From NCBI GenBank assembly GCA_964016885.1, contig CAXHJY010000145.1:1-32852 (forward strand): a stretch of 32,852 nucleotides of DNA, read 5' to 3'. Source of the stretch: Eledone cirrhosa (Eukaryota). Positions 1,811 through 32,095 of this stretch are shown piece by piece. A model generated the notes under the pieces. That model made no database searches. It was not told where the DNA came from and saw only the letters and a program-made list of their open reading frames with translations. Position 1 is the first letter of the stretch; every line of letters starts with the position of its first letter. Both the position numbers and the translations under genes were made by a program.

Positions 1811-2090
1811 ATGTATGCATATTGTAATGTTTGATTAAAACATCCGAGCATTAACTGAATAAACACTAGATAATTATGTGCAGATTCCACATTTTATTTT
1901 CTATGAAAAACAATGGCATTGTTTCAGTTGCTCACTTATACATTAGATCAATATATAATATAACACAGAATTAACAGACGTTCAATCCAATCTATAATTT
2001 ATATATATGTTATTCCGGGTTAAATCAGAGGTAACCACAGTAAGTAAGGTACTCAATACATAGCAGAGAATAAAAGTTTGAATATAGATG

Positions 2091-2141
2091 ATATTCTACA
2101 GGACTAGAACTGTTTCATTCTTTAGAAATCATCAGGAATAT
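2091..2141 (-). ncRNA. Minimal Penelope-type type I hammerhead in a short non-autonomous element (~2010-2160)
   Basis: Minus strand reads ATATTC-CTGATGA-T-TTC-TAAA-GAA-T-GAAAC-AG-TTCTAGTC-CT-GTA-GAATAT: 6-bp stem I, weak stem II with U.U, GUA site. Confidence 0.7.
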
Positions 2142-2904: not shown

Positions 2905-3105
2905 TTAGTTTCCTGAGTGTTGGGAGGTAACCACAGTTACAAAAAGGTACGCTATATGTTGGTAAAGTATAAGCATCTTTATCATATATAGAAATAACTT
3001 CTAAAACTATTTCAGTCATAAGGAATCATCAGGAATTCCTGATGATTCCATACAAATGAAACAGTTCTAGTCCTGTAGATGTCATTTCTATATATAATAA
3101 AGATA
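2905..3105. mobile_element. Head-to-head pair of the 2.1-kb hammerhead element fused at a 28-bp perfect palindrome (3022-3049)
   Basis: GAGGTAACCACAGT is shared with 2028-2041. The plus copy has CTGATGA 3039-3045, GAAAC 3058-3062 and GTA 3075-3077. Stems I and II are degraded. Confidence 0.7.
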
Positions 3106-3499: not shown

Positions 3500-3585
3500 T
3501 ATCTCTACCCCCGGCAATCTCATTCCATTTTGGGATATATCCGATCTTGGATAACTCAACGAGGTTTGGAAATCATCAGGAGATA
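3500..3585 (-). ncRNA. Decayed hammerhead with extended stem II
   Basis: Minus strand: TATCTC-CTGATGA-T-TTCCA...TGGAA-T-GAGAT-TGCCGGGG-GTA-GAGATA. Stem I (6 bp) is intact but GAAA is mutated to GAGA. Confidence 0.55.
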
Positions 3586-3905
3586 ACTCAATTGGACAAA
3601 CATTTTTCTTACATGATCCAGCCAGAAACGAATTCAAAATGGCTAAGAATCCTCACGTGGCTAGTGATCAAGGCAGAAAGTTTGTGATTGGTGCCCGTCG
3701 GCGAGTCGGGTGGTTGCTAGAAAGCGCAGCCGAATACTGCCTAAAGTTTTACTCAACCTTACGGGAGTATATAAAATTTAAAGGGTATATACATATAAAC
3801 TAGACAGAGTCATAGATATATATATATATATATGTTTTTGGCAACCATTCACGGTGTGGCTCAATGAAGAATTAATTAAATAATTAATAATCAGAGCAAT
3901 ATATA

Positions 3906-5816: not shown

Positions 5817-6117
5817 ATCAAATACTTAAATCCGGACGTAGTACACCTAAAACAATGCAAAGTAATCACGGAATATCCCTAAACGTAAATAATTGTTTCT
5901 ACTTTAGGCACAAGGCCAGCAAATTACCCAGTACATTACTGGTACTTTATTTTATCGACCCCGTAAGGATGAAAGGCAAAGTTAACCTCGGCGGGATTTG
6001 AACTCAGACTGTAAAGGGACGTAACTATGCTAGAAAGCATGGCGTCCAACCCTCTACCGATACTGCCAATTCAATGCACTCTAAATACTAGAACCCTATC
6101 GCACCTAACAAACCGAT
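5078..6117. repeat. Nested ~1-kb palindrome: inner hairpin 5421-5768, outer arms 5078-5200 and 5813-6117
   Basis: Inner arms of ~170 bp meet at a spacer of a few nt near 5600. TA tracts separate the inner and outer arms. The right outer arm is interrupted by a SINE. Confidence 0.9.
5894..6072 (-). mobile_element. tRNA-derived SINE
   Basis: The minus strand has A-box-like TGGCAGTATCGG and B-box GAGTTCAAATCCC. A near-identical copy is at 14995-15171. Confidence 0.85.
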
Positions 6118-6124
6118 TCTCGTT

Positions 6125-7780
6125 TAAATGCGTGTGTATGTGCAGATATGTGCACGTGTGTGTGTTGGTAGATTTTGTGTGTGCATTTGTTGCGAGTTTA
6201 TGTGCACGTGTGAGTGTACGCGTGTTTGCGCGATTGTGTGTGCGTGTATATGCGCCGTGTGTGCATGTGCATTCGCGCAGTGTTTTTGTGCGCGTTTTGA
6301 GCGCACTTTAATGCACCTTTTGTGCACTTTCATGCGCATCGTTTGCACAATACTGTGCATGTTTTCTGCGCGTTTTTTGTGCGCGTTATTGCGCGAACCT
6401 TTGTGCGCATTTTGTGCACGATTTGCGTGTGTTTTTGTGCGCGTATTTGTGCGCGTTTTTGTGCACGTTCCTGTGCGTCTTTTCGTGGAGTAATTATGTG
6501 CGCTTTTTCTGCAAGTTTTTGTGCACGATTTGCGCGTGATTTTAGTGCCCATTTTGTGCAAGATTTTGTGCGTTTTTGTGCATGTTTTTGTGCTCGTTGT
6601 CGTCTTGTTAAATGAGCACTTTTGGTGCACATTCTGTGCGTTCTTTGGTGCAAGTTTTTGTGTGCGTTTTCGTGCATTATTTTGTGCACGTTTTCGGGCA
6701 TCTTAATGCGCGTTTTTTGCGCGAGCTTTTGTGCGCCTTTCGTGCACGATTTGCGTGCGTCTTTGTGCACGTTTTTATGCATCTTTTTTCTGCAAGATTT
6801 TGTGCGCTTTTTGTGCACGATTTGCGGATGATTTTAGTGCACATTTTGTGCGTTTTTGTGCACATTTTTGTCAAGTTTTCTGCGCGTTTTTGCACGATCT
6901 TTTGTGCGCTTCTTTTGTGCACATGTTGTGCATGATTTTGTGCATTCTTTTGCACAAGATTTTGTGCGCGTTTCATGCACGTTTTTGTGCGTCTTTTTGT
7001 GAAATATATTTGTCCGCTTTTTCTGTCAGTGTTTATGCGCTTTTTCTGTACAATTTGTGAACTTTTTAGTGAGCATTTTGTGCACATTTGTGCATGATTT
7101 TGTGCATGTTTTCGTGCGCGTTTTTGCGCGAGATTTTGTGCGTTCTTTTGTGCTAGTTTTTGTGCGCATTTTCGTGCATTATTCTTGTGCGCGCTTTTGT
7201 GACCTTTTGCACTTTTGTGCAAGATTTTGTGCGTTCCTTTGGGCATGCTTTAGTGCGCGCTTTTGTGCACGTTTCTGTACGCTTGAGCTTTTGTGCATTT
7301 ATTGCACTTTTTGTACACGTATTGCGCGCGTTTTTGTGCACATTTTTTTGTATCTTTTTCTGAAGTATGTTTGTGCGATTTTTCTGCACTTTTGTTTAAG
7401 ATTTTGTGCGTTCTTCTGTGCATGTTTTTGTGCGCCTTTTTGTCACGTTTTGTGCGCTTTTTCTGCACGATTTGTGCGCGTTGTAATGCACATTTTGTTC
7501 ACTTTTGTGCAAGATTTAGTGCGTTCTTTTGTTCATGTTTTTGTGCGCGTTTTCGTGCACGTTTTCTCATGAGCCTTTGTTCGCTTTTTGTGCACGGTTT
7601 GCGCGCGTTTTTGTACGCGTTGTTTGTGCGCTTTTTTGTGCCTTTTTAGTGCGCCTTTCTGCAATCTTTTACTCTTTTTGTGCTTGATTTTTGTGCTTTT
7701 TGTGCGCGTTCTTGTCTACGTTTGCGTGCAGGTTTTTGTGCGTTATTTTGTGCGCTTTTCACGCAAGGTTTGTGCGCTTT
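6125..7780. repeat. Degenerate TTTTGTGCRC minisatellite (~10-12-bp period)
   Basis: Reiterated T-tract plus GTGCAC/GTGCGC motifs with strong strand asymmetry; source of the overlapping low-complexity ORFs. Confidence 0.9.
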
Positions 7781-7993: not shown

Positions 7994-8180
7994 ATATACA
8001 TAATATATACTTAATATACATAATATATAGAAATATATACTTAATATATATATATATATATACATACATAATATATATATATACATAATATATATATATA
8101 TATATACATAATATATATATATACATACATAATATATATATATATATATAAATAAATTTATACATTATATATATATACAT
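7781..8180. repeat. (TA)n-rich tract
   Basis: Directly visible. Confidence 0.95.
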
Positions 8181-8181
8181 T

Positions 8182-9133
8182 CACTGGCACCTAGAAGTCT
8201 TATATATTTTTATGTGAGCTGATAGAGGACAGTTTAAGGATTTACACAAACCCAAGAAGCTAGATTTACCATCTTTCTAGCGGGTCCGGGTATGCTTTTT
8301 ACATTCATTTGATTTATTGATTTATTGATTTTTTATCTGTGTGTCCCGAATCTTCCAGATCGCAATTTTTCGGTTGTATGGTTGATTATAGACTTGTTCT
8401 ATGTGTGACGGTATTTTAACGATAGTTATAGCTCTGATTTATCTAAATTATTGAGCCCTCTGCCGCTCATATCGAATTTTGTTTATCGTGAACTCGTGCG
8501 CCGATTTTTCGATACTCGATTATTCTACTATATTTAGCTCTAGACCTAGCTATTGACCAGTTAATTCTATTGTTCATTTTTTGTCGATTCTATTAAATGA
8601 TGAATAGCTCCTGTTTATTTTAACATGTCTATTGAGCACTCTTATTCGATATGTGTATTTCCACATTTTCCCGAATATTTTTCGCGGATATAGAGGTTAT
8701 CTCCCTTGCTGAATTACATGTGCGTATTTAGCCTGGGTTATGCCTTTTCATTCGTTTGGACAAAGCTCGTTGAGGAAGTAAACTCCCGTCCACTGGCACC
8801 TAGAAGTCTTATATATTTTTATGTGAGCTGATAGAGGACAGTTTAAGGATTTACAGAAACCCGAGAAGCTAGATTTACCATCTTTCTAGCGGGTCCGGGT
8901 ATGATTTTACATTCATTTGATTTATTGATTTATTGATTTTTTATCTGAGTGTCCCGAATCTTCCAGATCGCAATTTTTCGGTTGTATGTTTGATTATAGA
9001 CTTGTTCTATGTGTGACGGTATTTTAACGATAGTTATAGCTCTGATTTATCTAAATTATTGAGCCCTCTGCCGCTCATATCGAATTTTGTTTATCGTGAA
9101 CTCGTGCGCCGATTTTTCGATACTCGATTATTC

Positions 9134-9140
<7 letters not shown>
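8182..9140 (+). mobile_element. Retrozyme-like element, 609-bp unit x ~1.6 (subfamily of the main array)
   Basis: 8182 onward repeats at 8791 onward; clearly homologous to the 616-bp unit; flanked by (TA)n on both sides. Confidence 0.9.
8765..8900 (+). ncRNA. Variant type I hammerhead (UUGAGGA core, long stem II)
   Basis: Stem I GCTCG/CGGGT; TTGAGGA 8770-8776; stem II base GTAAA/TTTAC; GAAAC 8856-8860; stem III ACCCG/CGGGT; GTC 8893-8895. Confidence 0.75.
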
Positions 9141-9659: not shown

Positions 9660-10115
9660 ATATACCGTATGTTCAATTATTGCATTAATTTTACACTTGC
9701 TGAATTCACCTGCCAAGAACTGGGGTTACCTCCCTTGCAGAGATATACCCGTGGTGTCTCACTACTCCATACTATTGCATTAATTCCGCATGCTGGCGTA
9801 GAATAAAATACTTGTTGAGGAAGTGACAGCTTGTTCGATCATTATACCAAAAGCTTATTATTGAAGCAGGCAGTATAATTGATTTAAGTGTCGCAGAAAC
9901 CCTTTACTAGATTATACCATCATTTCCCTGAGTCCGGGTAAATATTCTTTTGTTTGACCTGTTTGGCTTGCCTCTCTTTTTTTGGCTTAGGTGGTTGATG
10001 ACTTCATGACCGCCATCTCAATTTGTTTGGCCTTTATAACCTATGTTTATTGGTATGGTCTTTTTTTGGTCCATGGAGCGCTTGCCAGCATAACTCGGAT
10101 ATTGCCTTTCGCTTT

Positions 10116-10119
<4 letters not shown>
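9660..10119 (+). mobile_element. Diverged partial retrozyme-like unit with hammerhead at 9809-9940
   Basis: Stem I TACTTG/CGGGTA; TTGAGGA 9815-9821; stem II GTGACA/TGTCGC; GAAAC 9896-9900; GTC 9932-9934; stem III degraded. Ends in (TA)n. The 5' boundary is approximate. Confidence 0.7.
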
Positions 10120-14994: not shown

Positions 14995-15171
14995 TGTTTC
15001 TACTTTAGGCACAAGGTCAGCAATTACCCAGTGCATTACTGGTACTTTTATTTTATCGACCCCGTAAGGATGAAAGGCAAAGTCAACCTCGGCGGGATTT
15101 GAACTCAGATCGTAAAGGGACGTAACTATGCTGGAAAGCATGGCGTCCGACCCTCTACCGATACTGCCAAT
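14995..15171 (-). mobile_element. tRNA-derived SINE (same family as 5894-6072)
   Basis: Near-identical sequence, with A and B boxes on the minus strand. Confidence 0.85.
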
Positions 15172-16581: not shown

Positions 16582-19500
16582 TATATGTGAGCTGATAGAG
16601 TACAGTCTAAGGATTTACAGAAACCCAAGAAGCTAGATTTAACACCTTTCTAGTGGGTCCGGGTATGATTTTACATTCATTTAAATTATTGATGTATTGT
16701 TTTATTGATATTTTTTATCTGATTGTCCCGAATCTTCTATTATCGATTTTTTATCGTATGGTTGATTTTAGACTTGTTCTATGTGTGACGGTATTTTAAC
16801 GATAGTTATAGCTCTGATTCATCTGAATTATTGAGCCCTCTGCCGCTCATTTCGAATATTGTTTATCGTGAACTTGTGCGCCGATTTTTCGATACTCGAT
16901 CTTTCTAATATTTTTAGCTCTGGACATAGCTATCCACCAGTTAATTTTATTGCTCATTTTTTGTCGATTCTATTGAGTGATGAATAGCTCCTGTTTTATT
17001 TTAACATGTCTATTGAGCACTCTTATTCGATATGTGTATTTCCACATTTCCTCGAATAGTTTTCGCGGATGTAGAGGTTATCTCCCTTGCCGGATTCCAT
17101 GTGCGTATTTCGCTTGTAGTTAGCCTCTTATCCGCTAGGAAAAAGCTCGTTGATGAAGTAAACTTCCATTCCGCTTGCTCTAGAAGTCTTATATATTTAT
17201 ATGTGAGCTGATAGAGTACAGTCTAAGGATTTACAGAAACCCAAGAAGCTAGATTTAACACCTTTCTAGTGGGTCCGGGTATGATTTTACATTCATTTAA
17301 ATTATTGATGTATTGTTTTATTGATATTTTTTATCTGATTGTCCCGAATCTTCTATTATCGACTTTTTATCGTATGGTTGATTTTAGACTTGTTCTATGT
17401 GTGACGGTATTTTAACGATAGTTATAGCTCTGATTCATCTGAATTATTGAGCCCTCTGCCGCTCATTTCGAATATTGTTTATCGTGAACTCGTGCGCCGA
17501 TTTTTCGATACTCGATCTTTCTAATATTTTTAGCTCTGGACATAGCTATCCACCAGTTAATTTTATTGCTCATTTTTTGTCGATTCTATTGATTGATGAA
17601 TAGCTCCTGTTTTATTTTAACATGTCTATTGAGCACTCTTATTCGATATGTGTATTTCCACATTTCCTCGAATAGTTTTCGCGGATGTAGAGGTTATCTC
17701 CCTTGCCGGATTCCATGTGCGTATTTCGCTTGTAGTTGGCCTCTTATCCGCTAGGAAAAAGCTCGTTGATGAAGTAAACTTCCATTCCGCTTGCTCTAGA
17801 AGTCTTATATATTTATATGTGAGCTGATAGAGTACAGTCTAAGGATTTACAGAAACCCAAGAAGCTAGATTTAACACCTTTCTAGTGGGTCCGGGTATGA
17901 TTTTACATTCATTTAAATTATTGATGTATTGTTTTATTGATATTTTTTATCTGATTGTCCCGAATCTTCTATTATCGATTTTTTATCGTATGGTTGATTT
18001 TAGAATTGTTCTATGTGTGACGGTATTTTAACGATAGTTATAGCTCTGATTCATCTGAATTATTGAGCCCTCTGCCGCTCATTTCGAATATTGTTTATCG
18101 TGAACTCGTGCGCCGATTTTTCGATACTCGATCTTTCTAATATTTTTAGCTCTGGACATAGCTATCCACCAGTTAATTTTATTGCTCATTTTTTGTCGAT
18201 TCTATTGAGTGATGAATAGCTCCTGTTTTATTTTAACATGTCTATTGAGCACTCTTATTCGATATGTGTATTTCCACATTTCCTCGAATAGTTTTCGCGG
18301 ATGTAGAGGTTATCTCCCTTGCCGGATTCCATGTGCGTATTTCGCTTGTAGTTAGCCTCTTATCCGCTAGGAAAAAGCTCGTTGATGAAGTAAACTTCCA
18401 TTCCGCTTGCTCTAGAAGTCTTATATATTTATATGTGAGCTGATAGAGTACAGTCTAAGGATTTACAGAAACCCAAGAAGCTAGATTTAACACCTTTCTA
18501 GTGGGTCCGGGTATGATTTTACATTCATTTAAATTATTGATGTATTGTTTTATTGATATTTTTTATCTGATTGTCCCGAATCTTCTATTATCGACTTTTT
18601 AGCGTATGGTTGATTTTAGACTTGTTCTATGTGTGACGGTATTTTAACGATAGTTATAGCTCTGATTCATCTGAATTATTGAGCCCTCTGCCGCTCATTT
18701 CGAATATTGTTTATCGTGAACTCGTGCGCCGATTTTTCGATACTCGATCTTTCTAATATTTTTAGCTCTGGACATAGCTATCCACCAGTTAATTTTATTG
18801 CTCATTTTTTGTCGATTCTATTGATTGATGAATAGCTCCTGTTTTATTTTAACATGTCTATTGAGCACTCTTATTCGATATGTGTATTTCCACATTTCCT
18901 CGAATAGTTTTCGCGGATGTAGAGGTTATCTCCCTTGCCGGATTCCATGTGCGTATTTCGCTTGTAGTTGGCCTCTTATCCGCTAGGAAAAAGCTCGTTG
19001 ATGAAGTAAACTTCCATTCCGCTTGCTCTAGAAGTCTTATATATTTATATGTGAGCTGATAGAGTACAGTCTAAGGATTTACAGAAACCCAAGAAGCTAG
19101 ATTTAACACCTTTCTAGTGGGTCCGGGTATGATTTTACATTCATTTAAATTATTGATGTATTGTTTTATTGATATTTTTTATCTGATTGTCCCGAATCTT
19201 CTATTATCGATTTTTTATCGTATGGTTGATTTTAGAATTGTTCTATGTGTGACGGTATTTTAACGATAGTTATAGCTCTGATTCATCTGAATTATTGAGC
19301 CCTCTGCCGCTCATTTCGAATATTGTTTATCGTGAACTCGTGCGCCGATTTTTCGATACTCGATCTTTCTAATATTTTTAGCTCTGGACATAGCTATCCA
19401 CCAGTTAATTTTATTGCTCATTTTTTGTCGATTCTATTGAGTGATGAATAGCTCCTGTTTTATTTTAACATGTCTATTGAGCACTCTTATTCGATATGTG

Positions 19501-22500
19501 TATTTCCACATTTCCTCGAATAGTTTTCGCGGATGTAGAGGTTATCTCCCTTGCCGGATTCCATGTGCGTATTTCGCTTGTAGTTAGCCTTTATCCGCTA
19601 GGAAAAAGCTCGTTGATGAAGTAAACTTCCATTCCGCTTGCTCTAGAAGTCTTATATATTTATATGTGAGCTGATAGAGTACAGTCTAAGGATTTACAGA
19701 AACCCAAGAAGCTAGATTTACCATCTTTCTAGTGGGTCCGGGTATGATTTTACATTCATTTAAATTATTGATGTATTGTTTTATTGATATTTTTTATCTG
19801 ATTGTCCCGAATCTTCTATTATCGATTTTTTATCGTATGGTTGATTTTAGAATTGTTCTATGTGTGACGGTATTTTAACGATAGTTATAGCTCTGATTCA
19901 TCTGAATTATTGAGCCCTCTGCCGCTCATTTCGAATATTGTTTATCGTGAACTCGTGCGCCGATTTTTCGATACTCGATCTTTCTAATATTTTTAGCTCT
20001 GGACATAGCTATCCACCAGTTAATTTTATTGCTCATTTTTTGTCGATTCTATTGAGTGATGAATAGCTCCTGTTTTATTTTAACATGTCTATTGAGCACT
20101 CTTATTCGATATGTGTATTTCCACATTTCCTCGAATAGTTTTCGCGGATGTAGAGGTTATCTCCCTTGCCGGATTCCATGTGCGTATTTCGCTTGTAGTT
20201 AGCCTCTTATCCGCTAGGAAAAAGCTCGTTGATGAAGTAAACTTCCATTCCGCTTGCTCTAGAAGTCTTATATATTTATATGTGAGCTGATAGAGTACAG
20301 TCTAAGGATTTACAGAAACCCAAGAAGCTAGATTTAACACCTTTCTAGTGGGTCCGGGTATGATTTTACATTCATTTAAATTATTGATGTATTGTTTTAT
20401 TGATATTTTTTATCTGATTGTCCCGAATCTTCTATTATCGACTTTTTATCGTATGGTTGATTTTAGACTTGTTCTATGTGTGACGGTATTTTAACGATAG
20501 TTATAGCTCTGATTCATCTGAATTATTGAGCCCTCTGCCGCTCATTTCGAATATTGTTTATCGTGAACTCGTGCGCCGATTTTTCGATACTCGATCTTTC
20601 TAATATTTTTAGCTCTGGACATAGCTATCCACCAGTTAATTTTATTGCTCATTTTTTGTCGATTCTATTGAGTGATGAATAGCTCCTGTTTTATTTTAAC
20701 ATGTCTATTGAGCACTCTTATTCGATATGTGTATTTCCACATTTCCTCGAATAGTTTTCGCGGATGTAGAGGTTACCTCCCTTGCCGGATTCCATGTGCG
20801 TATTTCGCTTGTAGTTAGCCTCTTATCCGCTAGGAAAAAGCTCGTTGATGAAGTAAACTTCCATTCCGCTTGCTCTAGAAGTCTTATATATTTATATGTG
20901 AGCTGATAGAGTACAGTCTAAGGATTTACAGAAACCCAAGAAGCTAGATTTAACACCTTTCTAGTGGGTCCGGGTATGATTTTACATTCATTTAAATTAT
21001 TGATGTATTGTTTTATTGATATTTTTTATCTGATTGTCCCGAATCTTCTATTATCGATTTTTTATCGTATGGTTGATTTTAGACTTGTTCTATGTGTGAC
21101 GGTATTTTAACGATAGTTATAGCTCTGATTCATCTGAATTATTGAGCCCTCTGCCGCTCATTTCGAATATCGTTTATCGTGAACTCGTGCGCCGATTTTT
21201 CGATACTCGATCTTTCTAATATTTTTAGCTCTGGACATAGCTATCCACCAGTTAATTTTATTGCTCATTTTTTGTCGATTCTATTGAGTGATGAATAGCT
21301 CCTGTTTTATTTTAACATGTCTATTGAGCACTCTTATTCGATATGTGTATTTCCACATTTCCTCGAATAGTTTTCGCGGATGTAGAGGTTATCTCCCTTG
21401 CCGGATTCCATGTGCGTATTTCGCTTGTAGTTAGCCTCTTATCCGCTAGGAAAAAGCTCGTTGATGAAGTAAACTTCCATTCCGCTTGCTCTAGAAGTCT
21501 TATATATTTATATGTGAGCTGATAGAGTACAGTCTAAGGATTTACAGAAACCCAAGAAGCTAGATTTAACACCTTTCTAGTGGGTCCGGGTATGATTTTA
21601 CATTCATTTAAATTATTGATGTATTGTTTTATTGATATTTTTTATCTGATTGTCCCGAATCTTCTATTATCGACTTTTTAGCGTATGGTTGATTTTAGAC
21701 TTGTTCTATGTGTGACGGTATTTTAACGATAGTTATAGCTCTGATTCATCTGAATTATTGAGCCCTCTGCCGCTCATTTCGAATATTGTTTATCGTGAAC
21801 TCGTGCGCCGATTTTTCGATACTCGATCTTTCTAATATTTTTAGCTCTGGACATAGCTATCCACCAGTTAATTTTATTGCTCATTTTTTGTCGATTCTAT
21901 TGATTGATGAATAGCTCCTGTTTTATTTTAACATGTCTATTGAGCACTCTTATTCGATATGTGTATTTCCACATTTCCTCGAATAGTTTTCGCGGATGTA
22001 GAGGTTATCTCCCTTGCCGGATTCCATGTGCGTATTTCGCTTGTAGTTGGCCTCTTATCCGCTAGGAAAAAGCTCGTTGATGAAGTAAACTTCCATTCCG
22101 CTTGCTCTAGAAGTCTTATATATTTATATGTGAGCTGATAGAGTACAGTCTAAGGATTTACAGAAACCCAAGAAGCTAGATTTAACACCTTTCTAGTGGG
22201 TCCGGGTATGATTTTACATTCATTTAAATTATTGATGTATTGTTTTATTGATATTTTTTATCTGATTGTCCCGAATCTTCTATTATCGATTTTTTATCGT
22301 ATGGTTGATTTTAGAATTGTTCTATGTGTGACGGTATTTTAACGATAGTTATAGCTCTGATTCATCTGAATTATTGAGCCCTCTGCCGCTCATTTCGAAT
22401 ATTGTTTATCGTGAACTCGTGCGCCGATTTTTCGATACTCGATCTTTCTAATATTTTTAGCTCTGGACATAGCTATCCACCAGTTAATTTTATTGCTCAT

Positions 22501-25500
22501 TTTTTGTCGATTCTATTGAGTGATGAATAGCTCCTGTTTTATTTTAACATGTCTATTGAGCACTCTTATTCGATATGTGTATTTCCACATTTCCTCGAAT
22601 AGTTTTCGCGGATGTAGAGGTTACCTCCCTTGCCGGATTCCATGTGCGTATTTCGCTTGTAGTTAGCCTCTTATCCGCTAGGAAAAAGCTCGTTGATGAA
22701 GTAAACTTCCATTCCGCTTGCTCTAGAAGTCTTATATATTTATATGTGAGCTGATAGAGTACAGTCTAAGGATTTACAGAAACCCAAGAAGCTAGATTTA
22801 ACACCTTTCTAGTGGGTCCGGGTATGATTTTACATTCATTTAAATTATTGATGTATTGTTTTATTGATATTTTTTATCTGATTGTCCCGAATCTTCTATT
22901 ATCGATTTTTTATCGTATGGTTGATTTTAGACTTGTTCTATGTGTGACGGTATTTTAACGATAGTTATAGCTCTGATTCATCTGAATTATTGAGCCCTCT
23001 GCCGCTCATTTCGAATATCGTTTATCGTGAACTCGTGCGCCGATTTTTCGATACTCGATCTTTCTAATATTTTTAGCTCTGGACATAGCTATCCACCAGT
23101 TAATTTTATTGCTCATTTTTTGTCGATTCTATTGAGTGATGAATAGCTCCTGTTTTATTTTAACATGTCTATTGAGCACTCTTATTCGATATGTGTATTT
23201 CCACATTTCCTCGAATAGTTTTCGCGGATGTAGAGGTTATCTCCCTTGCCGGATTCCATGTGCGTATTTCGCTTGTAGTTAGCCTCTTATCCGCTAGGAA
23301 AAAGCTCGTTGATGAAGTAAACTTCCATTCCGCTTGCTCTAGAAGTCTTATATATTTATATGTGAGCTGATAGAGTACAGTCTAAGGATTTACAGAAACC
23401 CAAGAAGCTAGATTTAACATCTTTCTAGTGGGTCCGGGTATGATTTTACATTCATTTAAATTATTGATGTATTGTTTTATTGATATTTTTTATCTGATTG
23501 TCCCGAATCTTCTATTATCGACTTTTTAGCGTATGGTTGATTTTAGACTTGTTCTATGTGTGACGGTATTTTAACGATAGTTATAGCTCTGATTCATCTG
23601 AATTATTGAGCCCTCTGCCGCTCATTTCGAATATTGTTTATCGTGAACTCGTGCGCCGATTTTTCGATACTCGATCTTTCTAATATTTTTAGCTCTGGAC
23701 ATAGCTATCCACCAGTTAATTTTATTGCTCATTTTTTGTCGATTCTATTGATTGATGAATAGCTCCTGTTTTATTTTAACATGTCTATTGAGCACTCTTA
23801 TTCGATATGTGTATTTCCACATTTCCTCGAATAGTTTTCGCGGATGTAGAGGTTATCTCCCTTGCCGGATTCCATGTGCGTATTTCGCTTGTAGTTGGCC
23901 TCTTATCCGCTAGGAAAAAGCTCGTTGATGAAGTAAACTTCCATTCCGCTTGCTCTAGAAGTCTTATATATTTATATGTGAGCTGATAGAGTACAGTCTA
24001 AGGATTTACAGAAACCCAAGAAGCTAGATTTAACACCTTTCTAGTGGGTCCGGGTATGATTTTACATTCATTTAAATTATTGATGTATTGTTTTATTGAT
24101 ATTTTTTATCTGATTGTCCCGAATCTTCTATTATCGATTTTTTATCGTATGGTTGATTTTAGAATTGTTCTATGTGTGACGGTATTTTAACGATAGTTAT
24201 AGCTCTGATTCATCTGAATTATTGAGCCCTCTGCCGCTCATTTCGAATATTGTTTATCGTGAACTCGTGCGCCGATTTTTCGATACTCGATCTTTCTAAT
24301 ATTTTTAGCTCTGGACATAGCTATCCACCAGTTAATTTTATTGCTCATTTTTTGTCGATTCTATTGAGTGATGAATAGCTCCTGTTTTATTTTAACATGT
24401 CTATTGAGCACTCTTATTCGATATGTGTATTTCCACATTTCCTCGAATAGTTTTCGCGGATGTAGAGGTTATCTCCCTTGCCGGATTCCATGTGCGTATT
24501 TCGCTTGTAGTTAGCCTTTATCCGCTAGGAAAAAGCTCGTTGATGAAGTAAACTTCCATTCCGCTTGCTCTAGAAGTCTTATATATTTATATGTGAGCTG
24601 ATAGAGTACAGTCTAAGGATTTACAGAAACCCAAGAAGCTAGATTTACCATCTTTCTAGTGGGTCCGGGTATGATTTTACATTCATTTAAATTATTGATG
24701 TATTGTTTTATTGATATTTTTTATCTGATTGTCCCGAATCTTCTATTATCGATTTTTTATCGTATGGTTGATTTTAGAATTGTTCTATGTGTGACGGTAT
24801 TTTAACGATAGTTATAGCTCTGATTCATCTGAATTATTGAGCCCTCTGCCGCTCATTTCGAATATTGTTTATCGTGAACTCGTGCGCCGATTTTTCGATA
24901 CTCGATCTTTCTAATATTTTTAGCTCTGGACATAGCTATCCACCAGTTAATTTTATTGCTCATTTTTTGTCGATTCTATTGAGTGATGAATAGCTCCTGT
25001 TTTATTTTAACATGTCTATTGAGCACTCTTATTCGATATGTGTATTTCCACATTTCCTCGAATAGTTTTCGCGGATGTAGAGGTTATCTCCCTTGCCGGA
25101 TTCCATGTGCGTATTTCGCTTGTAGTTAGCCTCTTATCCGCTAGGAAAAAGCTCGTTGATGAAGTAAACTTCCATTCCGCTTGCTCTAGAAGTCTTATAT
25201 ATTTATATGTGAGCTGATAGAGTACAGTCTAAGGATTTACAGAAACCCAAGAAGCTAGATTTAACACCTTTCTAGTGGGTCCGGGTATGATTTTACATTC
25301 ATTTAAATTATTGATGTATTGTTTTATTGATATTTTTTATCTGATTGTCCCGAATCTTCTATTATCGACTTTTTATCGTATGGTTGATTTTAGACTTGTT
25401 CTATGTGTGACGGTATTTTAACGATAGTTATAGCTCTGATTCATCTGAATTATTGAGCCCTCTGCCGCTCATTTCGAATATTGTTTATCGTGAACTCGTG

Positions 25501-28500
25501 CGCCGATTTTTCGATACTCGATCTTTCTAATATTTTTAGCTCTGGACATAGCTATCCACCAGTTAATTTTATTGCTCATTTTTTGTCGATTCTATTGAGT
25601 GATGAATAGCTCCTGTTTTATTTTAACATGTCTATTGAGCACTCTTATTCGATATGTGTATTTCCACATTTCCTCGAATAGTTTTCGCGGATGTAGAGGT
25701 TACCTCCCTTGCCGGATTCCATGTGCGTATTTCGCTTGTAGTTAGCCTCTTATCCGCTAGGAAAAAGCTCGTTGATGAAGTAAACTTCCATTCCGCTTGC
25801 TCTAGAAGTCTTATATATTTATATGTGAGCTGATAGAGTACAGTCTAAGGATTTACAGAAACCCAAGAAGCTAGATTTAACACCTTTCTAGTGGGTCCGG
25901 GTATGATTTTACATTCATTTAAATTATTGATGTATTGTTTTATTGATATTTTTTATCTGATTGTCCCGAATCTTCTATTATCGATTTTTTATCGTATGGT
26001 TGATTTTAGACTTGTTCTATGTGTGACGGTATTTTAACGATAGTTATAGCTCTGATTCATCTGAATTATTGAGCCCTCTGCCGCTCATTTCGAATATCGT
26101 TTATCGTGAACTCGTGCGCCGATTTTTCGATACTCGATCTTTCTAATATTTTTAGCTCTGGACATAGCTATCCACCAGTTAATTTTATTGCTCATTTTTT
26201 GTCGATTCTATTGAGTGATGAATAGCTCCTGTTTTATTTTAACATGTCTATTGAGCACTCTTATTCGATATGTGTATTTCCACATTTCCTCGAATAGTTT
26301 TCGCGGATGTAGAGGTTATCTCCCTTGCCGGATTCCATGTGCGTATTTCGCTTGTAGTTAGCCTCTTATCCGCTAGGAAAAAGCTCGTTGATGAAGTAAA
26401 CTTCCATTCCGCTTGCTCTAGAAGTCTTATATATTTATATGTGAGCTGATAGAGTACAGTCTAAGGATTTACAGAAACCCAAGAAGCTAGATTTAACACC
26501 TTTCTAGTGGGTCCGGGTATGATTTTACATTCATTTAAATTATTGATGTATTGTTTTATTGATATTTTTTATCTGATTGTCCCGAATCTTCTATTATCGA
26601 CTTTTTAGCGTATGGTTGATTTTAGACTTGTTCTATGTGTGACGGTATTTTAACGATAGTTATAGCTCTGATTCATCTGAATTATTGAGCCCTCTGCCGC
26701 TCATTTCGAATATTGTTTATCGTGAACTCGTGCGCCGATTTTTCGATACTCGATCTTTCTAATATTTTTAGCTCTGGACATAGCTATCCACCAGTTAATT
26801 TTATTGCTCATTTTTTGTCGATTCTATTGATTGATGAATAGCTCCTGTTTTATTTTAACATGTCTATTGAGCACTCTTATTCGATATGTGTATTTCCACA
26901 TTTCCTCGAATAGTTTTCGCGGATGTAGAGGTTATCTCCCTTGCCGGATTCCATGTGCGTATTTCGCTTGTAGTTGGCCTCTTATCCGCTAGGAAAAAGC
27001 TCGTTGATGAAGTAAACTTCCATTCCGCTTGCTCTAGAAGTCTTATATATTTATATGTGAGCTGATAGAGTACAGTCTAAGGATTTACAGAAACCCAAGA
27101 AGCTAGATTTAACACCTTTCTAGTGGGTCCGGGTATGATTTTACATTCATTTAAATTATTGATGTATTGTTTTATTGATATTTTTTATCTGATTGTCCCG
27201 AATCTTCTATTATCGATTTTTTATCGTATGGTTGATTTTAGAATTGTTCTATGTGTGACGGTATTTTAACGATAGTTATAGCTCTGATTCATCTGAATTA
27301 TTGAGCCCTCTGCCGCTCATTTCGAATATTGTTTATCGTGAACTCGTGCGCCGATTTTTCGATACTCGATCTTTCTAATATTTTTAGCTCTGGACATAGC
27401 TATCCACCAGTTAATTTTATTGCTCATTTTTTGTCGATTCTATTGAGTGATGAATAGCTCCTGTTTTATTTTAACATGTCTATTGAGCACTCTTATTCGA
27501 TATGTGTATTTCCACATTTCCTCGAATAGTTTTCGCGGATGTAGAGGTTATCTCCCTTGCCGGATTCCATGTGCGTATTTCGCTTGTAGTTAGCCTCTTA
27601 TCCGCTAGGAAAAAGCTCGTTGATGAAGTAAACTTCCATTCCGCTTGCTCTAGAAGTCTTATATATTTATATGTGAGCTGATAGAGTACAGTCTAAGGAT
27701 TTACAGAAACCCAAGAAGCTAGATTTAACACCTTTCTAGTGGGTCCGGGTATGATTTTACATTCATTTAAATTATTGATGTATTGTTTTATTGATATTTT
27801 TTATCTGATTGTCCCGAATCTTCTATTATCGACTTTTTATCGTATGGTTGATTTTAGACTTGTTCTATGTGTGACAGTATTTTAAGGATAGTTATAGCTC
27901 TGAATCATCTGAATTATTGAGCCCTCTGCCGCTCATTTCGAATATTGTTTATCGTGAACTCGTGCGCCGATTTTTCGATACTCGATCTTTCTAATATTTT
28001 TAGCTCTGGACATAGCTATCCACCAGTTAATTTTATTGCTCATTTTTTGTCGATTCTATTGAGTGATGAATAGCTCCTGTTTTATTTTAACATGTCTATT
28101 GAGCACTCTTATTCGATATGTGTATTTCCACATTTCCTCGAATAGTTTTCGCGGATGTAGAGGTTATCTCCCTTGCCGGATTCCATGTGCGTATTTCGCT
28201 TGTAGTTGGCCTCTTATCCGCTAGGAAAAAGCTCGTTGATGAAGTAAACTTCCATTCCGCTTGCTCTAGAAGTCTTATATATTTATATGTGAGCTGATAG
28301 AGTACAGTCTAAGGATTTACAGAAACCCAAGAAGCTAGATTTAACACCTTTCTAGTGGGTCCGGGTATGATTTTACATTCATTTAAATTATTGATGTATT
28401 GTTTTATTGATATTTTTTATCTGATTGTCCCGAATCTTCTATTATCGATTTTTTATCGTATGGTTGATTTTAGAATTGTTCTATGTGTGACGGTATTTTA

Positions 28501-29841
28501 ACGATAGTTATAGCTCTGATTCATCTGAATTATTGAGCCCTCTGCCGCTCATTTCGAATATTGTTTATCGTGAACTCGTGCGCCGATTTTTCGATACTCG
28601 ATCTTTCTAATATTTTTAGCTCTGGACATAGCTATCCACCAGTTAATTTTATTGCTCATTTTTTGTCGATTCTATTGAGTGATGAATAGCTCCTGTTTTA
28701 TTTTAACATGTCTATTGAGCACTCTTATTCGATATGTGTATTTCCACATTTCCTCGAATAGTTTTCGCGGATGTAGAGGTTATCTCCCTTGCCGGATTCC
28801 ATGTGCGTATTTCGCTTGTAGTTAGCCTCTTATCCGCTAGGAAAAAGCTCGTTGATGAAGTAAACTTCCATTCCGCTTGCTCTAGAAGTCTTATATATTT
28901 ATATGTGAGCTGATAGAGTACAGTCTAAGGATTTACAGAAACCCAAGAAGCTAGATTTAACACCTTTCTAGTGGGTCCGGGTATGATTTTACATTCATTT
29001 AAATTATTGATGTATTGTTTTATTGATATTTTTTATCTGATTGTCCCGAATCTTCTATTATCGACTTTTTATCGTATGGTTGATTTTAGACTTGTTCTAT
29101 GTGTGACGGTATTTTAACGATAGTTATAGCTCTGATTCATCTGAATTATTGAGCCCTCTGCCGCTCATTTCGAATATTGTTTATCGTGAACTCGTGCGCC
29201 GATTTTTCGATACTCGATCTTTCTAATATTTTTAGCTCTGGACATAGCTATCCACCAGTTAATTTTATTGCTCATTTTTTGTCGATTCTATTGAGTGATG
29301 AATAGCTCCTGTTTTATTTTAACATGTCTATTGAGCACTCTTATTCGATATGTGTATTTCCACATTTCCTCGAATAGTTTTCGCGGATGTAGAGGTTATC
29401 TCCCTTGCCGGATTCCATGTGCGTATTTCGCTTGTAGTTAGCCTCTTATCCGCTAGGAAAATGCTCGTTGATGAAGTAAACTTCCATTCCGCTTGCTCTA
29501 GAAGTCTTATATATTTATATGTGAGCTGATAGAGTACAGTCTAAGGATTTACAGAAACCCAAGAAGCTAGATTTAACACCTTTCTAGTGGGTCCGGGTAT
29601 GATTTTACATTCATTTAAATTATTGATGTATTGTTTTATTGATATTTTTTATCTGATTGTCCCGAATCTTCTATTATCGATTTTTTATCGTATGGTTGAT
29701 TTTAGACTTGTTCTATGTGTGACGGTATTTTAACGATAGTTATAGCTCTGATTCATCTGAATTATTGAGCCCTCTGCCGCTCATTTCGAATATTGTTTAT
29801 CGTGAACTCGTGCGCCGATTTTTCGATACTCGATCTTTCTA
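16582..29841 (+). mobile_element. Tandem array of 616-bp hammerhead-containing (retrozyme-like) units, ~21.5 copies
   Basis: GCTGATAGAG recurs at 16591, 17207, 17823 ... 29525 (22 times; spacing 616, twice 615). Units differ at only a few sites. There are no ORFs in the track, and (TA)n flanks both sides. Confidence 0.93.
17145..17280 (+). ncRNA. Variant type I hammerhead (first of 21 complete copies in the array)
   Basis: Stem I GCTCG/CGGGT; TTGATGA 17150-17156; A.A then GTAAA/TTTAC, GCTCTA/TAGAGT and CTTATATA/TATGTGAG; GAAAC 17236-17240; stem III ACCCA/TGGGT plus CTAGA/TCTAG; GTC 17273-17275. Confidence 0.78.
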
Positions 29842-29883
<42 letters not shown>

Positions 29884-29909
29884 GTGGGAAAGTGAAAAAT
29901 CGGAGAATA

Positions 29910-29987
29910 GACCGTTAAAACATGTTTATTGAAAACATCACCTACGTACGTTTCGCCCAGTTGGGCTTCTCAAGGGCATAAACGGTC
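29910..29987 (-). ncRNA. Penelope 3'-UTR hammerhead, U3-A8 variant with palindromic stem III
   Basis: Minus strand: CC-TTGAGAA-GCCC-AACT-GGGC-GAAAC-GTAC-GTA-GG. Distal stem I GACCGTT/AACGGTC. ACGTACGT is self-complementary, typical of dimeric folding. Confidence 0.8.
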
Positions 29988-30228
29988 ACAAGTGTTCCTT
30001 ATATAGTTTGGAAAGAGATTTGGGGGTTAAATCGACATCAAGATTCATTGTTCGCAAAAATATCTTGTTTTGATTTTGCAGCAGGTCAAGGGAGGTAACT
30101 TTGGCCGGTGTTAGGGCAGTCTTTCCCGGATAATTTTTGGTATGCAGGGATCGTTTTCTGGGTGTTATTTTGCTGCGCCTGCCCGCCGGGGTGTTAAGAC
30201 TTGTTGCAGGGAGATCCAGTGTGTTATT

Positions 30229-31254
30229 TCACTCTCCATTCTTAACCCATCTAAAGAAGGATATTTTTAAGCGATGTGTACAACTTATCGCTGTTTCAGC
30301 TCTGCTGTTGATGTGCTCGTGGGGTGCAGTTATGATGTGGTAGAGCTCCATGAGGCAAAGATCGCATTTCCTCTTGAAGTTGTACGGTGCAGCCCTGTCG
30401 ACAATCTCCCAGTGCGTGGAGAAGCTAATGTTTAAGTCCTTTAGTGATGTGATGTAGTCCGCGAGCGAGGTGGAGTGCCTTAGTTTTCTATTTGTGAAAG
30501 AGTGGAGATGTGTTCGAAACCTAATTTTGAACGGGCCGGAGGTGGCCCCTATATAATGTTTAACGCTATTGTGGCTAGTAATAGTGCATCTATATATAAC
30601 TCTATCGGTCAAGCAGTATCCTCTAAGGGGGCACCGTCCTCTGTCGCGGCAGTTGCAATTTCTGTCGCTGTTCCGTCTATTTCCCACGATAAGGCTATCA
30701 TTGTTGATGCCTACGTTGTTAGCTGCGCTACTGCAGCTGTCGTTAGCACAATTACAGCCCACAGCACGCGGGATGGTGCGATTGTTATTCCGCACGCCAT
30801 GTTTTGCATGCTTCCCAGTCACTTCGCGGTCATTCTGGTTGCGTCTGCGGATGCCGTTGCCAACACTATTGGATGCTGTCAGGGAGTTGTTAAGGCCGAT
30901 ACAGTTATTGTCAGGTGTAGGTGCATCTGCGTCGAGGTGCTGTGTCTTGGTGATCTTACTGTGGTTCGTTGTTCCTATGATGTCTGCTAGGTTAGGAGTA
31001 GTAGAGAAGGATATTTTTATATTATTCCTATTAAGAATTTTTCTATACCTATGGTTGGGTGGGAAGTTCTTCTCTAAGGCTTCGAAGAATATCCGGGGTA
31101 TGTTGGAGGCCACACTTCGAGAGTAGGGGGGGTGGAACCATAGGACGTTACGGTGGCGATTACGTGTCCTTGTACTTTTGCTACGGGTGGTTCCATCTAA
31201 GTGATCGCTCTTATGTGTGTTAATGCGCTGTCGCCCGTTCGGTGCCCCTTTCAC
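30229..31254 (-). CDS. C-terminal part of a Penelope-like ORF: linker, Cys knuckle and GIY-YIG endonuclease; RT absent
   Basis: WFHPPYS, CNCxxxxxCPLxGxC, VIY...YIG, FKxRxxxH, CxLCLxE and INSRxE motifs, uninterrupted for 341 aa. The GTG start lies at the junction with another element and is probably not the real start. Confidence 0.9.
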   Translation of the reverse strand: MKGAPNGRQRINTHKSDHLDGTTRSKSTRTRNRHRNVLWFHPPYSRSVASNIPRIFFEALEKNFPPNHRYRKILNRNNIKISFSTTPNLADIIGTTNHSKITKTQHLDADAPTPDNNCIGLNNSLTASNSVGNGIRRRNQNDREVTGKHAKHGVRNNNRTIPRAVGCNCANDSCSSAANNVGINNDSLIVGNRRNSDRNCNCRDRGRCPLRGYCLTDRVIYRCTITSHNSVKHYIGATSGPFKIRFRTHLHSFTNRKLRHSTSLADYITSLKDLNISFSTHWEIVDRAAPYNFKRKCDLCLMELYHIITAPHEHINSRAETAISCTHRLKISFFRWVKNGE

Positions 31255-31262
31255 TTTATATA

Positions 31263-32074
31263 AATCACATATACTTTTATTTGTTTGACCCGAATTACTT
31301 GGTCGTTTTGTGGCTGTGCGGATGATTGTTTAACCATCATCTCAGTGTGTTTGGCCTTTAACGTATGTTGTAGCTCTGGTTCATCTGAATCAGTGAGCGC
31401 TTGCCACACATCACGGAAGTTGTTTTTCGTTAATTCCTAAGCCGAAATACGATTCTCGCTAATTTATATTTGTATTAATCTCCAGCGTCTAGCTATTGAC
31501 CAGTTAATTTTCTTGATTTTTTTAGTTGATTCTATTGACTGATGAATAGCTTGTGTTAACTTATAACCATTCTGTTGAGAGCTTTATTCGTTTTGTGATG
31601 TTTTGCATTCTTGCAATTTTATACACATACTGAATTCATCCGCCTAAAATAAGAGTTGCCTCTCTTGCCGAGCCTTTGTGGGTCGGTAACGGTAATTCCT
31701 TAAATTAGCACTCGAACTAAAACCTGTTGAAAAATGACTTCCTTGTTCAATCATCTTACCAGAAGCCTAACATTATTCATGTAAGCGGACAGTACTTGAT
31801 TTAGAAGTCGCAGAAACCCAAATGCTGGATTTTACCAACCATCCAGGGGTCCGGGTAAATTTTCAATCACATATATTTTTATTTGTTTGACCCGAATTAC
31901 TTGGTCGTTTTTATGGCTGTGCGGATGATTGTTTAACCATCGTCTCAGTGTGTTTGGCCTTTAACGTATGTGGTAGCTCTGGTTCATCTGAATCATTGAG
32001 CGCTTGCCACACATCTCGGAAGTTGTTTTTCGTTAATTCCTAAGCCGAAATACGATTCTCGCTAATTTATATTT
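31263..32074 (+). mobile_element. Diverged retrozyme-like element, 602-bp unit x ~1.35, hammerhead at 31722-31856
   Basis: 31263 onward repeats at 31865 onward. Stem I ACCTG/CGGGT; TTGAAAA 31727-31733; stem II TGACTTC/GAAGTCG; GAAAC 31813-31817; ACCC/GGGT plus CTGGAT/ATCCAG; GTC 31849-31851. Confidence 0.8.
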
Positions 32075-32095
32075 ATATATATACACCCCCCCCCC

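Follow-up and report, generated by a model that had tools for sequence, protein, structure and literature searches.

Hammerhead elements and motif copies in the analyzed window

The window analyzed here, a stretch of 32,852 nt from Eledone cirrhosa, contains part of a Penelope-like element (PLE, family A), hammerhead units of a second family (family B), and hammerheads of a third (family C). A 13-nt motif occurs upstream of the ribozyme cores of families A and B. The features are as follows, with window coordinates.

2010-2140, minus strand: hammerhead element of a separate family (C), with the partial match at 2028-2035 on the downstream side of its ribozyme
2905-3085, unstranded: two family-C-like hammerheads in inverted orientation; the minus-strand core has the partial match at 2922-2931 downstream of it
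8180-9136, plus strand: ~1.6 units of family B, with the motif at 8696-8708, the core at 8770, and cuts predicted after 8286 and 8895
9680-10118, plus strand: one family B unit, truncated at its 5' end and from a different subfamily, with the motif at 9725-9737, the core at 9815, and a cut predicted after 9934
16586-29841, plus strand: tandem array of 616-nt family B units with 21 motif copies and a type I hammerhead in each unit
29883-30228, minus strand: 3' pseudo-LTR of family A, whose short 3' end abuts (TA)n; other copies have the same layout
29937-29979, minus strand: minimal type I hammerhead as read from the sequence, U3-A8 core, core start 29973, predicted cut after 29943
30087-30099, minus strand: motif in the family A 3' pseudo-LTR, 113 nt upstream of the core (sequence match)
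30229-31259, minus strand: 5'-truncated ORF of PLE family A with linker, Cys-rich stretch, and GIY-YIG endonuclease
31263-32076, plus strand: ~1.35 family B units; core 31727, predicted cut after 31851
31655-31667, plus strand: motif variant in a family B unit, 59 nt upstream of the core (sequence match)
31964-32015, plus strand: covarying 3' hairpin region of family B, about 70-80 nt before the 3' end

At no more than one mismatch, the window holds 24 motif matches against 0.05 expected (100 shuffles). The letters that the earlier note had given for 30087-30099 (minus strand), 9725-9737, 8696-8708, 17077-17089, and 31655-31667 were recovered exactly, as was the C form in three array units (20772, 22620, and 25699). 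Full-length copies in the window lie throughout in the ribozyme sense, upstream of the core, and the spacing put earlier at ~60-115 nt is 59-61 nt in the array and at 8696 and 31655, 77 nt at 9725, and 113 nt in the PLE. The motif is more degenerate than first written, positions 4-7 being R-Y-Y-Y, and in a second PLE family (family G) it often ends in A. Because 23 of the 24 matches fall within one homologous family of ~600-nt hammerhead units, the window offers only two independent cases. Surroundings described as unrelated proved to be so between the PLE and the units (best profile E value 0.049) but not among the units, which are 66-73% alike. An Rfam scan of the window returned no hammerhead or other relevant family, only microsatellite artefacts.

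Two other repeats were observed. A SINE-like repeat with A-box-like and B-box-like stretches (6013-6025 and 15114-15126, minus strand) holds a motif look-alike with other central letters and accounts for many of the look-alike matches obtained with fixed flanks. A degenerate 12-nt tandem array of ~113 copies occupies 6431-7741.

The partial matches at 2028-2035 and 2922-2931, counted earlier with the motif, are not cases of it: they begin 100-101 nt downstream of their cores and belong to family C, in which the letters after the partial match diverge from the motif. This family has 12,054 pattern matches genome-wide (~12,000 copies), and the motif is absent upstream of its ribozymes. The partial match at 3580-3588 abuts a core without the GAAA half. 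We also observed a TATA box ~30 nt before the family C ribozyme (2010-2140, 2905-3085, and loci L141-L170), and many family C copies fold back as palindromes, with the joint at the 5' arm of the ribozyme. In two further hammerhead families (L225, L231, L257, and L223), one of them a 310-nt tandem, a motif variant lies directly 3' of the cut, inside stem I.

The motif in Penelope-like elements

The family A copy in the window lacks the reverse transcriptase (RT), which is present in the full-length copy L171. The latter has the order pseudo-LTR, RT, GIY-YIG, pseudo-LTR, with direct pseudo-LTRs 3.4 kb apart, and carries the RT core and C-terminal endonuclease in one (broken) frame series, as defines an EN+ PLE; Pfam scores for the family are weak (RVT_1, E 0.004; GIY-YIG, E 0.041, below the cut-off). 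Family A also shows what is expected of PLE pseudo-LTRs, which hold a type I hammerhead of minimal form, come with 5'-truncated partners in tandem and inverted arrangement, and may have a 3' tail. Inverted pairs were seen in L172-L177, and there are two alternative 3' ends ~165 nt apart. Our PLE structure terms follow the available text of PMC8557442, where the Neptune clade has a CX2-5CxxC linker ahead of the GIY-YIG motif; family A shows a Cys-rich linker and (TA)n targeting, with a linker spacing that is not literally the published one. Its hammerhead has 2,460 pattern matches genome-wide and resembles known PLE pseudo-LTR hammerheads in minimal architecture and U3-A8 core covariation (PMC4209133, available portion). 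The single strand at 29937-29979 gave no hammerhead fold on folding. In L171 we additionally noted an acceptor-like tract shortly before the ATG, which may mark a pseudo-LTR intron with a counterpart in family B.

Family A was sampled by its ribozyme rather than by the motif, yielding 30 copies, of which six are truncated and 24 reach the motif position. The degenerate motif was present with at most one mismatch in 21 of these 24, and its distance to the core was 111-114 nt in 21 of 23 measured copies. Among representatives it lies in sense in 15 of 17 and in antisense in none, and it forms a local conservation peak (0.75 versus a median of 0.60; rank 66 of 488 windows). A TATA-like box is kept only in the youngest subfamily.

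Family G, which like the LTR family D described below was first met through the motif, is a second PLE, 34-41% identical to A in the aligned protein pieces, with 5,272 ribozyme matches genome-wide. The motif occurs with one or two mismatches in 9 of 12 copies counted as reaching its position (one of the three misses, L377, is really truncated), always 107 nt from a downstream C3-G8 core. The stretch from motif to ribozyme contains a GC-rich palindrome and an ETS-like box, and some copies add a TATA-like box. Of 18 truncated family G copies, 17 have their start between motif and ribozyme, 7-54 nt ahead of the core (p = 1e-4 versus uniform truncation), and the 5' ends of family A copies show a milder cluster at 16-39 nt. 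Families A and G share ~24 alignable nucleotides around the motif at near-equal distance from the core (107 vs 112 nt). A third PLE, L296, has the motif ~200 nt after the stop codon, in the 3' flank; in several other PLE clusters, some of them truncated, it was not seen after the endonuclease.

The family B retrozyme and a covarying 3' hairpin

The units at 8.2, 9.7, 16.6-29.8, and 31.3 kb form one family, to which the 21 array copies of the motif and those at 8696, 9725, and 31655 all belong. In the array, the first copy is at 17077-17089 and the last at 29395-29407, each 59-60 nt upstream of its core. Stem II is ~100 nt long, and cores are U3-G8 or U3-A8 (for example, 17150-17245). This hammerhead is missed by Rfam; a pattern search gave 5,236 matches genome-wide, with arrays of at least 60 units. 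The three-way hammerhead is the minimum-energy structure of the array unit at 17140-17285 (z -2.38) and of the 31.7-kb unit (z -0.47); the minimum-energy fold of the 9.8-kb unit is not a hammerhead. The units have no long ORF and no open frame in common. Tandem non-coding units with one type I hammerhead each are the marks of a non-LTR retrozyme, and family B, as read from its sequence, qualifies as one.

Sampling by the ribozyme gave 35 copies of family B, 10 truncated and 25 reaching the motif position. Among the latter, 14 match with at most one mismatch and seven with two or three, and in four the motif is absent. It lies in sense in 15 of 22 representatives and in antisense in none, and it is again a local conservation peak (0.77 versus a median of 0.59; rank 42 of 586 windows). 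Beyond the motif, profile comparison found no homology of B to the pseudo-LTRs of A (best E value 0.049) or G (0.081), the two PLE families covered by the comparison among a larger number, nor of G to A (0.24). The alignments of A and B show no conserved fold or pairing at the motif; a local hairpin around it, present in single subfamilies, was absent from the alignments and was discarded.

Some 65-80 nt from the 3' end of family B is a hairpin with double changes in six of nine pairs and 91.5% pairing, a value reached in none of 500 shuffles and far above that of slid controls; it was drawn by eye from the same alignment used for the test, and RNAalifold does not predict it. Its four closing pairs occur in 16 of 22 B, 4 of 10 long-ended A, 8 of 8 C, and 2 of 3 G sequences. 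They switch from G-C to A-U between families and lie 38-83 nt from the 3' end (L012, L141, and L007).

Three side observations concern family B. The truncated PLE and a family B unit meet head-to-head at 31259-31265, separated by a few TA letters, with the geometry of a PLE inverted partner; no second junction of this kind was found among the loci examined. A donor-like GT follows the predicted cut (for example, at 17275-17285), and the 3' end is closely followed by an acceptor-like tract. The corresponding intron-like joint was not found in X1-X3, contigs of unknown kind with DNA-like behaviour.

The motif in an LTR retrotransposon family

Family D has its own integrase and no hammerhead. LTR pairs were found in six of eight stretches, with 460-nt LTRs 99% alike, and the LTR-retrotransposon features are present: paired LTRs starting with TG, PBS-like and PPT-like flanks, and pol domains. 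L276 encodes RNase H, H2C2, and rve (integrase) domains in the Ty3/gypsy order. The motif starts at LTR nucleotide 8 or 11 in all 30 PPT-anchored LTRs, exactly in 24 and with one mismatch in six. Of the 188 13-nt windows in the first 200 nt of the LTR, it is the most conserved among 13 lineage representatives, a conservation that could partly reflect the nearby integrase end. The family varies at the same degenerate positions of the motif, and in most copies ETS-like and TATA boxes follow 58-98 nt after it. Separately, L271-L275 are short (1.6-2.1 kb) non-coding derivatives of this element with 300-380-nt LTRs and 707 PPT-pattern matches genome-wide.

Genome-wide distribution of the motif

The exact motif has 4,912 matches genome-wide, against 64 and 1,277 on the two strands for the reversed control. 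A hammerhead 5' core follows within 50-85 nt in 1,611 of the exact matches and in none of the control. The first 40 exact matches comprise 16 from family A, 11 from family B, and 13 others, and the excess of these 13 can be cancelled by the 1,277 control matches on one strand (2 or 22 expected). With the flanks fixed, the 16 RYYY centres average 139 matches each versus 22 for the other 240 centres and five for the reversed control, a 6-fold excess per variant over the other centres and a 29-fold one over the control; part of this excess consists of further repeat families, including chance matches in RT frames. The genome-wide excess is defined by these reversed-pattern and fixed-flank controls. 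Near hammerheads the motif stands above background, as expected of the cis signal that the earlier note had proposed.

For sites outside the known families, 40 loci were hand-picked from 70 remaining rows, leaving out those that looked like families A or E. Seemingly unique sites turned out to be other repeats in 21 of the 40, and among the chance families the motif matches fall inside gypsy and LINE reading frames. No significant CpG excess was found at sites outside known families (p = 0.14, n = 24; p = 0.35, n = 19). A conserved octopod gene has a single-copy site 58 nt ahead of its ATG, and the relatives of a neighbouring gene place the host among the octopods. A strict hammerhead descriptor placed a core downstream of 0 of 39 singleton sites (background 11 of 1,500), a weak test that detects just 10 of 33 family A sites.

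A putative upstream promoter element

The motif is a conserved cis signal, as shown by its position, its orientation, and its retention in four otherwise unalignable families. This part of the earlier proposal holds up well: the motif keeps a fixed distance and always the sense orientation in three ribozyme-anchored hammerhead families. Of the two functions suggested for it, a promoter element fits the data; an RT or endonuclease binding site fits poorly for a motif that occurs in LTRs, has no conserved fold, and lies far from 3' ends. The further idea that it links parasite RNAs to their helper was not sustained, since this PLE shares the motif with other elements and a further large hammerhead family lacks it upstream.

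Judging from these sequence patterns, we consider it probable that the motif is a DNA site for a host transcription factor that acts as an upstream promoter element. In the mechanism we propose for tandem and pseudo-LTR arrangements, the upstream copy's motif would recruit the factor, RNA polymerase II would start ~55-110 nt past the motif, near the hammerhead 5' arm, and the transcript would run on through the next copy. Such a transcript would carry the motif in its 3' part, so that each long insertion would receive a copy, much as LTRs regenerate their U3. Retrozyme B would keep the motif for its own transcription and not for reading by the enzyme of its helper. RNA 5' ends between motif and ribozyme would place the motif upstream of the start site. 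An alternative source of the 5'-end pile-up in families G and A is RT pausing at structure, and many of the ends are fold-back junctions. We also considered a downstream core promoter, with the motif at +18 to +30 of an Inr-like word and 5' ends predicted ~17 nt upstream of the motif; it was rejected because the (TA)n-adjacent 5' ends spread over 3-54 nt. Tentatively, and with more doubt than for the promoter role, a single octopod factor may have been captured independently by PLEs, retrozyme parasites, and LTR retrotransposons, the link between parasite and helper being the separate 3' hairpin.

Three other explanations were weighed. The motif might be an inherited relic, with A, G, and B descending from one ancestral pseudo-LTR of which a ~25-nt block survives, through a PLE-local cause or slow drift, and with coincidental matches in LTRs and host sites. 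The block alignable between A and G, the U3 core variant and similar 3' ends common to A and B, the reported derivation of retrozymes from pseudo-LTRs (bioRxiv 10.64898/2026.07.22.740005, available text), and the existence of chance motif families in gypsy and LINE reading frames all agree with this. However, the sequence around the block cannot be aligned, which drift alone would not leave, and the LTR family varies at the same degenerate positions while keeping the motif as its best-conserved window; we regard the relic as unlikely. Less probable still, a host factor may bind the motif for another job, such as insulation, escape from silencing, nucleosome positioning, or RNA export or stability. 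The same recurrence across families and the genome-wide excess would be expected, an RNA-level signal would equally agree with the sense orientation kept strictly in all families, non-family sites are without a CpG-rich promoter signature, and in two hammerhead families the motif sits just 3' of the cut. Two facts, on the other hand, would be expected of an upstream activator: the motif sits in U3 ahead of ETS-like and TATA boxes, and family G 5' ends accumulate shortly after it.

The least probable of the three is that the motif is an RNA or DNA site for the PLE RT or GIY-YIG endonuclease that licenses mobilization of retrozyme B. Its sense occurrence in two autonomous PLE families, the L296 flank, and the retrozyme is compatible with this, as are the ending of both A and B against (TA)n and the one head-to-head joint of PLE and B unit in the window. 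Yet a signal of this kind should lie at or near the 3' end where copying starts, be usually structured, and be specific to its enzyme, and the motif has none of these properties: it lies far upstream of 3' ends, shows no conserved fold, and recurs in the LTRs of an element with other enzymes. It is missing upstream of family C and from 18 of 30 G, 6 of 30 A, and 10 of 35 B insertions, although truncated cDNAs could account for the latter. In the one PLE tested in vitro, from Anolis, RNA downstream of the ribozyme is needed, and it is there that reverse transcription starts and the RNA is probably bound (PMC11167929, available portion). The covarying hairpin near the 3' ends is a better candidate than the motif for the recognition site of the PLE RT.

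Comparison with known systems

The nearest precedent for the proposed promoter element is Penelope of Drosophila virilis, whose promoter lies in the pseudo-LTR, downstream of the start site; there, too, regulatory sequence in the 3' UTR/pseudo-LTR drives the downstream copy of a partial tandem (PMC2377424, available portion). That promoter differs in being internal, with an Inr, a downstream element, and an intron, and in having the element RGACGTGY (same source), whereas the octopod motif has another sequence, would lie upstream of the start, and is common to retrozymes and LTRs.

An enhancer/promoter in U3 is a familiar property of LTR retrotransposons. Host factor sites there lie upstream of the TATA box and are copied from the RNA 3' end (PMC2377424, available portion); the octopod motif differs in also serving elements without true LTRs. 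Non-LTR retrozymes of animals are tandem non-coding units with one type I hammerhead each (PMC7229834; bioRxiv 10.64898/2026.07.22.740005), which co-occur with PLEs and for which a pseudo-LTR origin has been proposed (the latter source; available portions of both). Family B departs from the known ones in its ~100-nt stem II, its U3 core, and a sequence that, beyond the motif, cannot be aligned to the local PLE pseudo-LTR. The available portions of these two texts name no shared promoter motif for retrozymes, and that of PMC4209133 describes no upstream motif for minimal PLE hammerheads.

Among catalogued factors, RFX was considered. Its X-box consists of two inverted half-sites, GTNRCC N0-3 RGYAAC (bioRxiv 10.1101/2022.11.11.515474, available text). 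The monomer site GTTRCY fits the first six letters of half of the motif variants, but the commonest form in the array and family G has T at position 5, and the X-box was rejected, the invariant 3' half of the motif not being an inverted second half-site. A cephalopod motif study lists catalogued factors only (PMC13652810, available portion). Six 12-nt forms of the motif used as literature queries gave 21 matches that, as listed, were all on unrelated topics, and searches found no mention of the motif in openly available texts. PLE hammerheads, retrozymes, and their PLE origin were already known; the motif is real and probably regulatory.

The available parts of published retrozyme and PLE texts do not address how retrozymes are transcribed or recognized by PLE enzymes. 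The present finding separates two candidates for these tasks: the 13-nt motif ahead of the ribozyme, as a likely promoter site, and the covarying hairpin near the 3' end. If the promoter reading is true, one transcription-factor site has been spread through the octopod genome by thousands of insertions, and the same cells would express helper and parasite with no enzyme reading the motif. If, further, PLEs, retrozymes, and LTR retrotransposons have each captured the same factor, a single host switch, possibly a germline one, would co-activate three mechanistically different kinds of retroelement.
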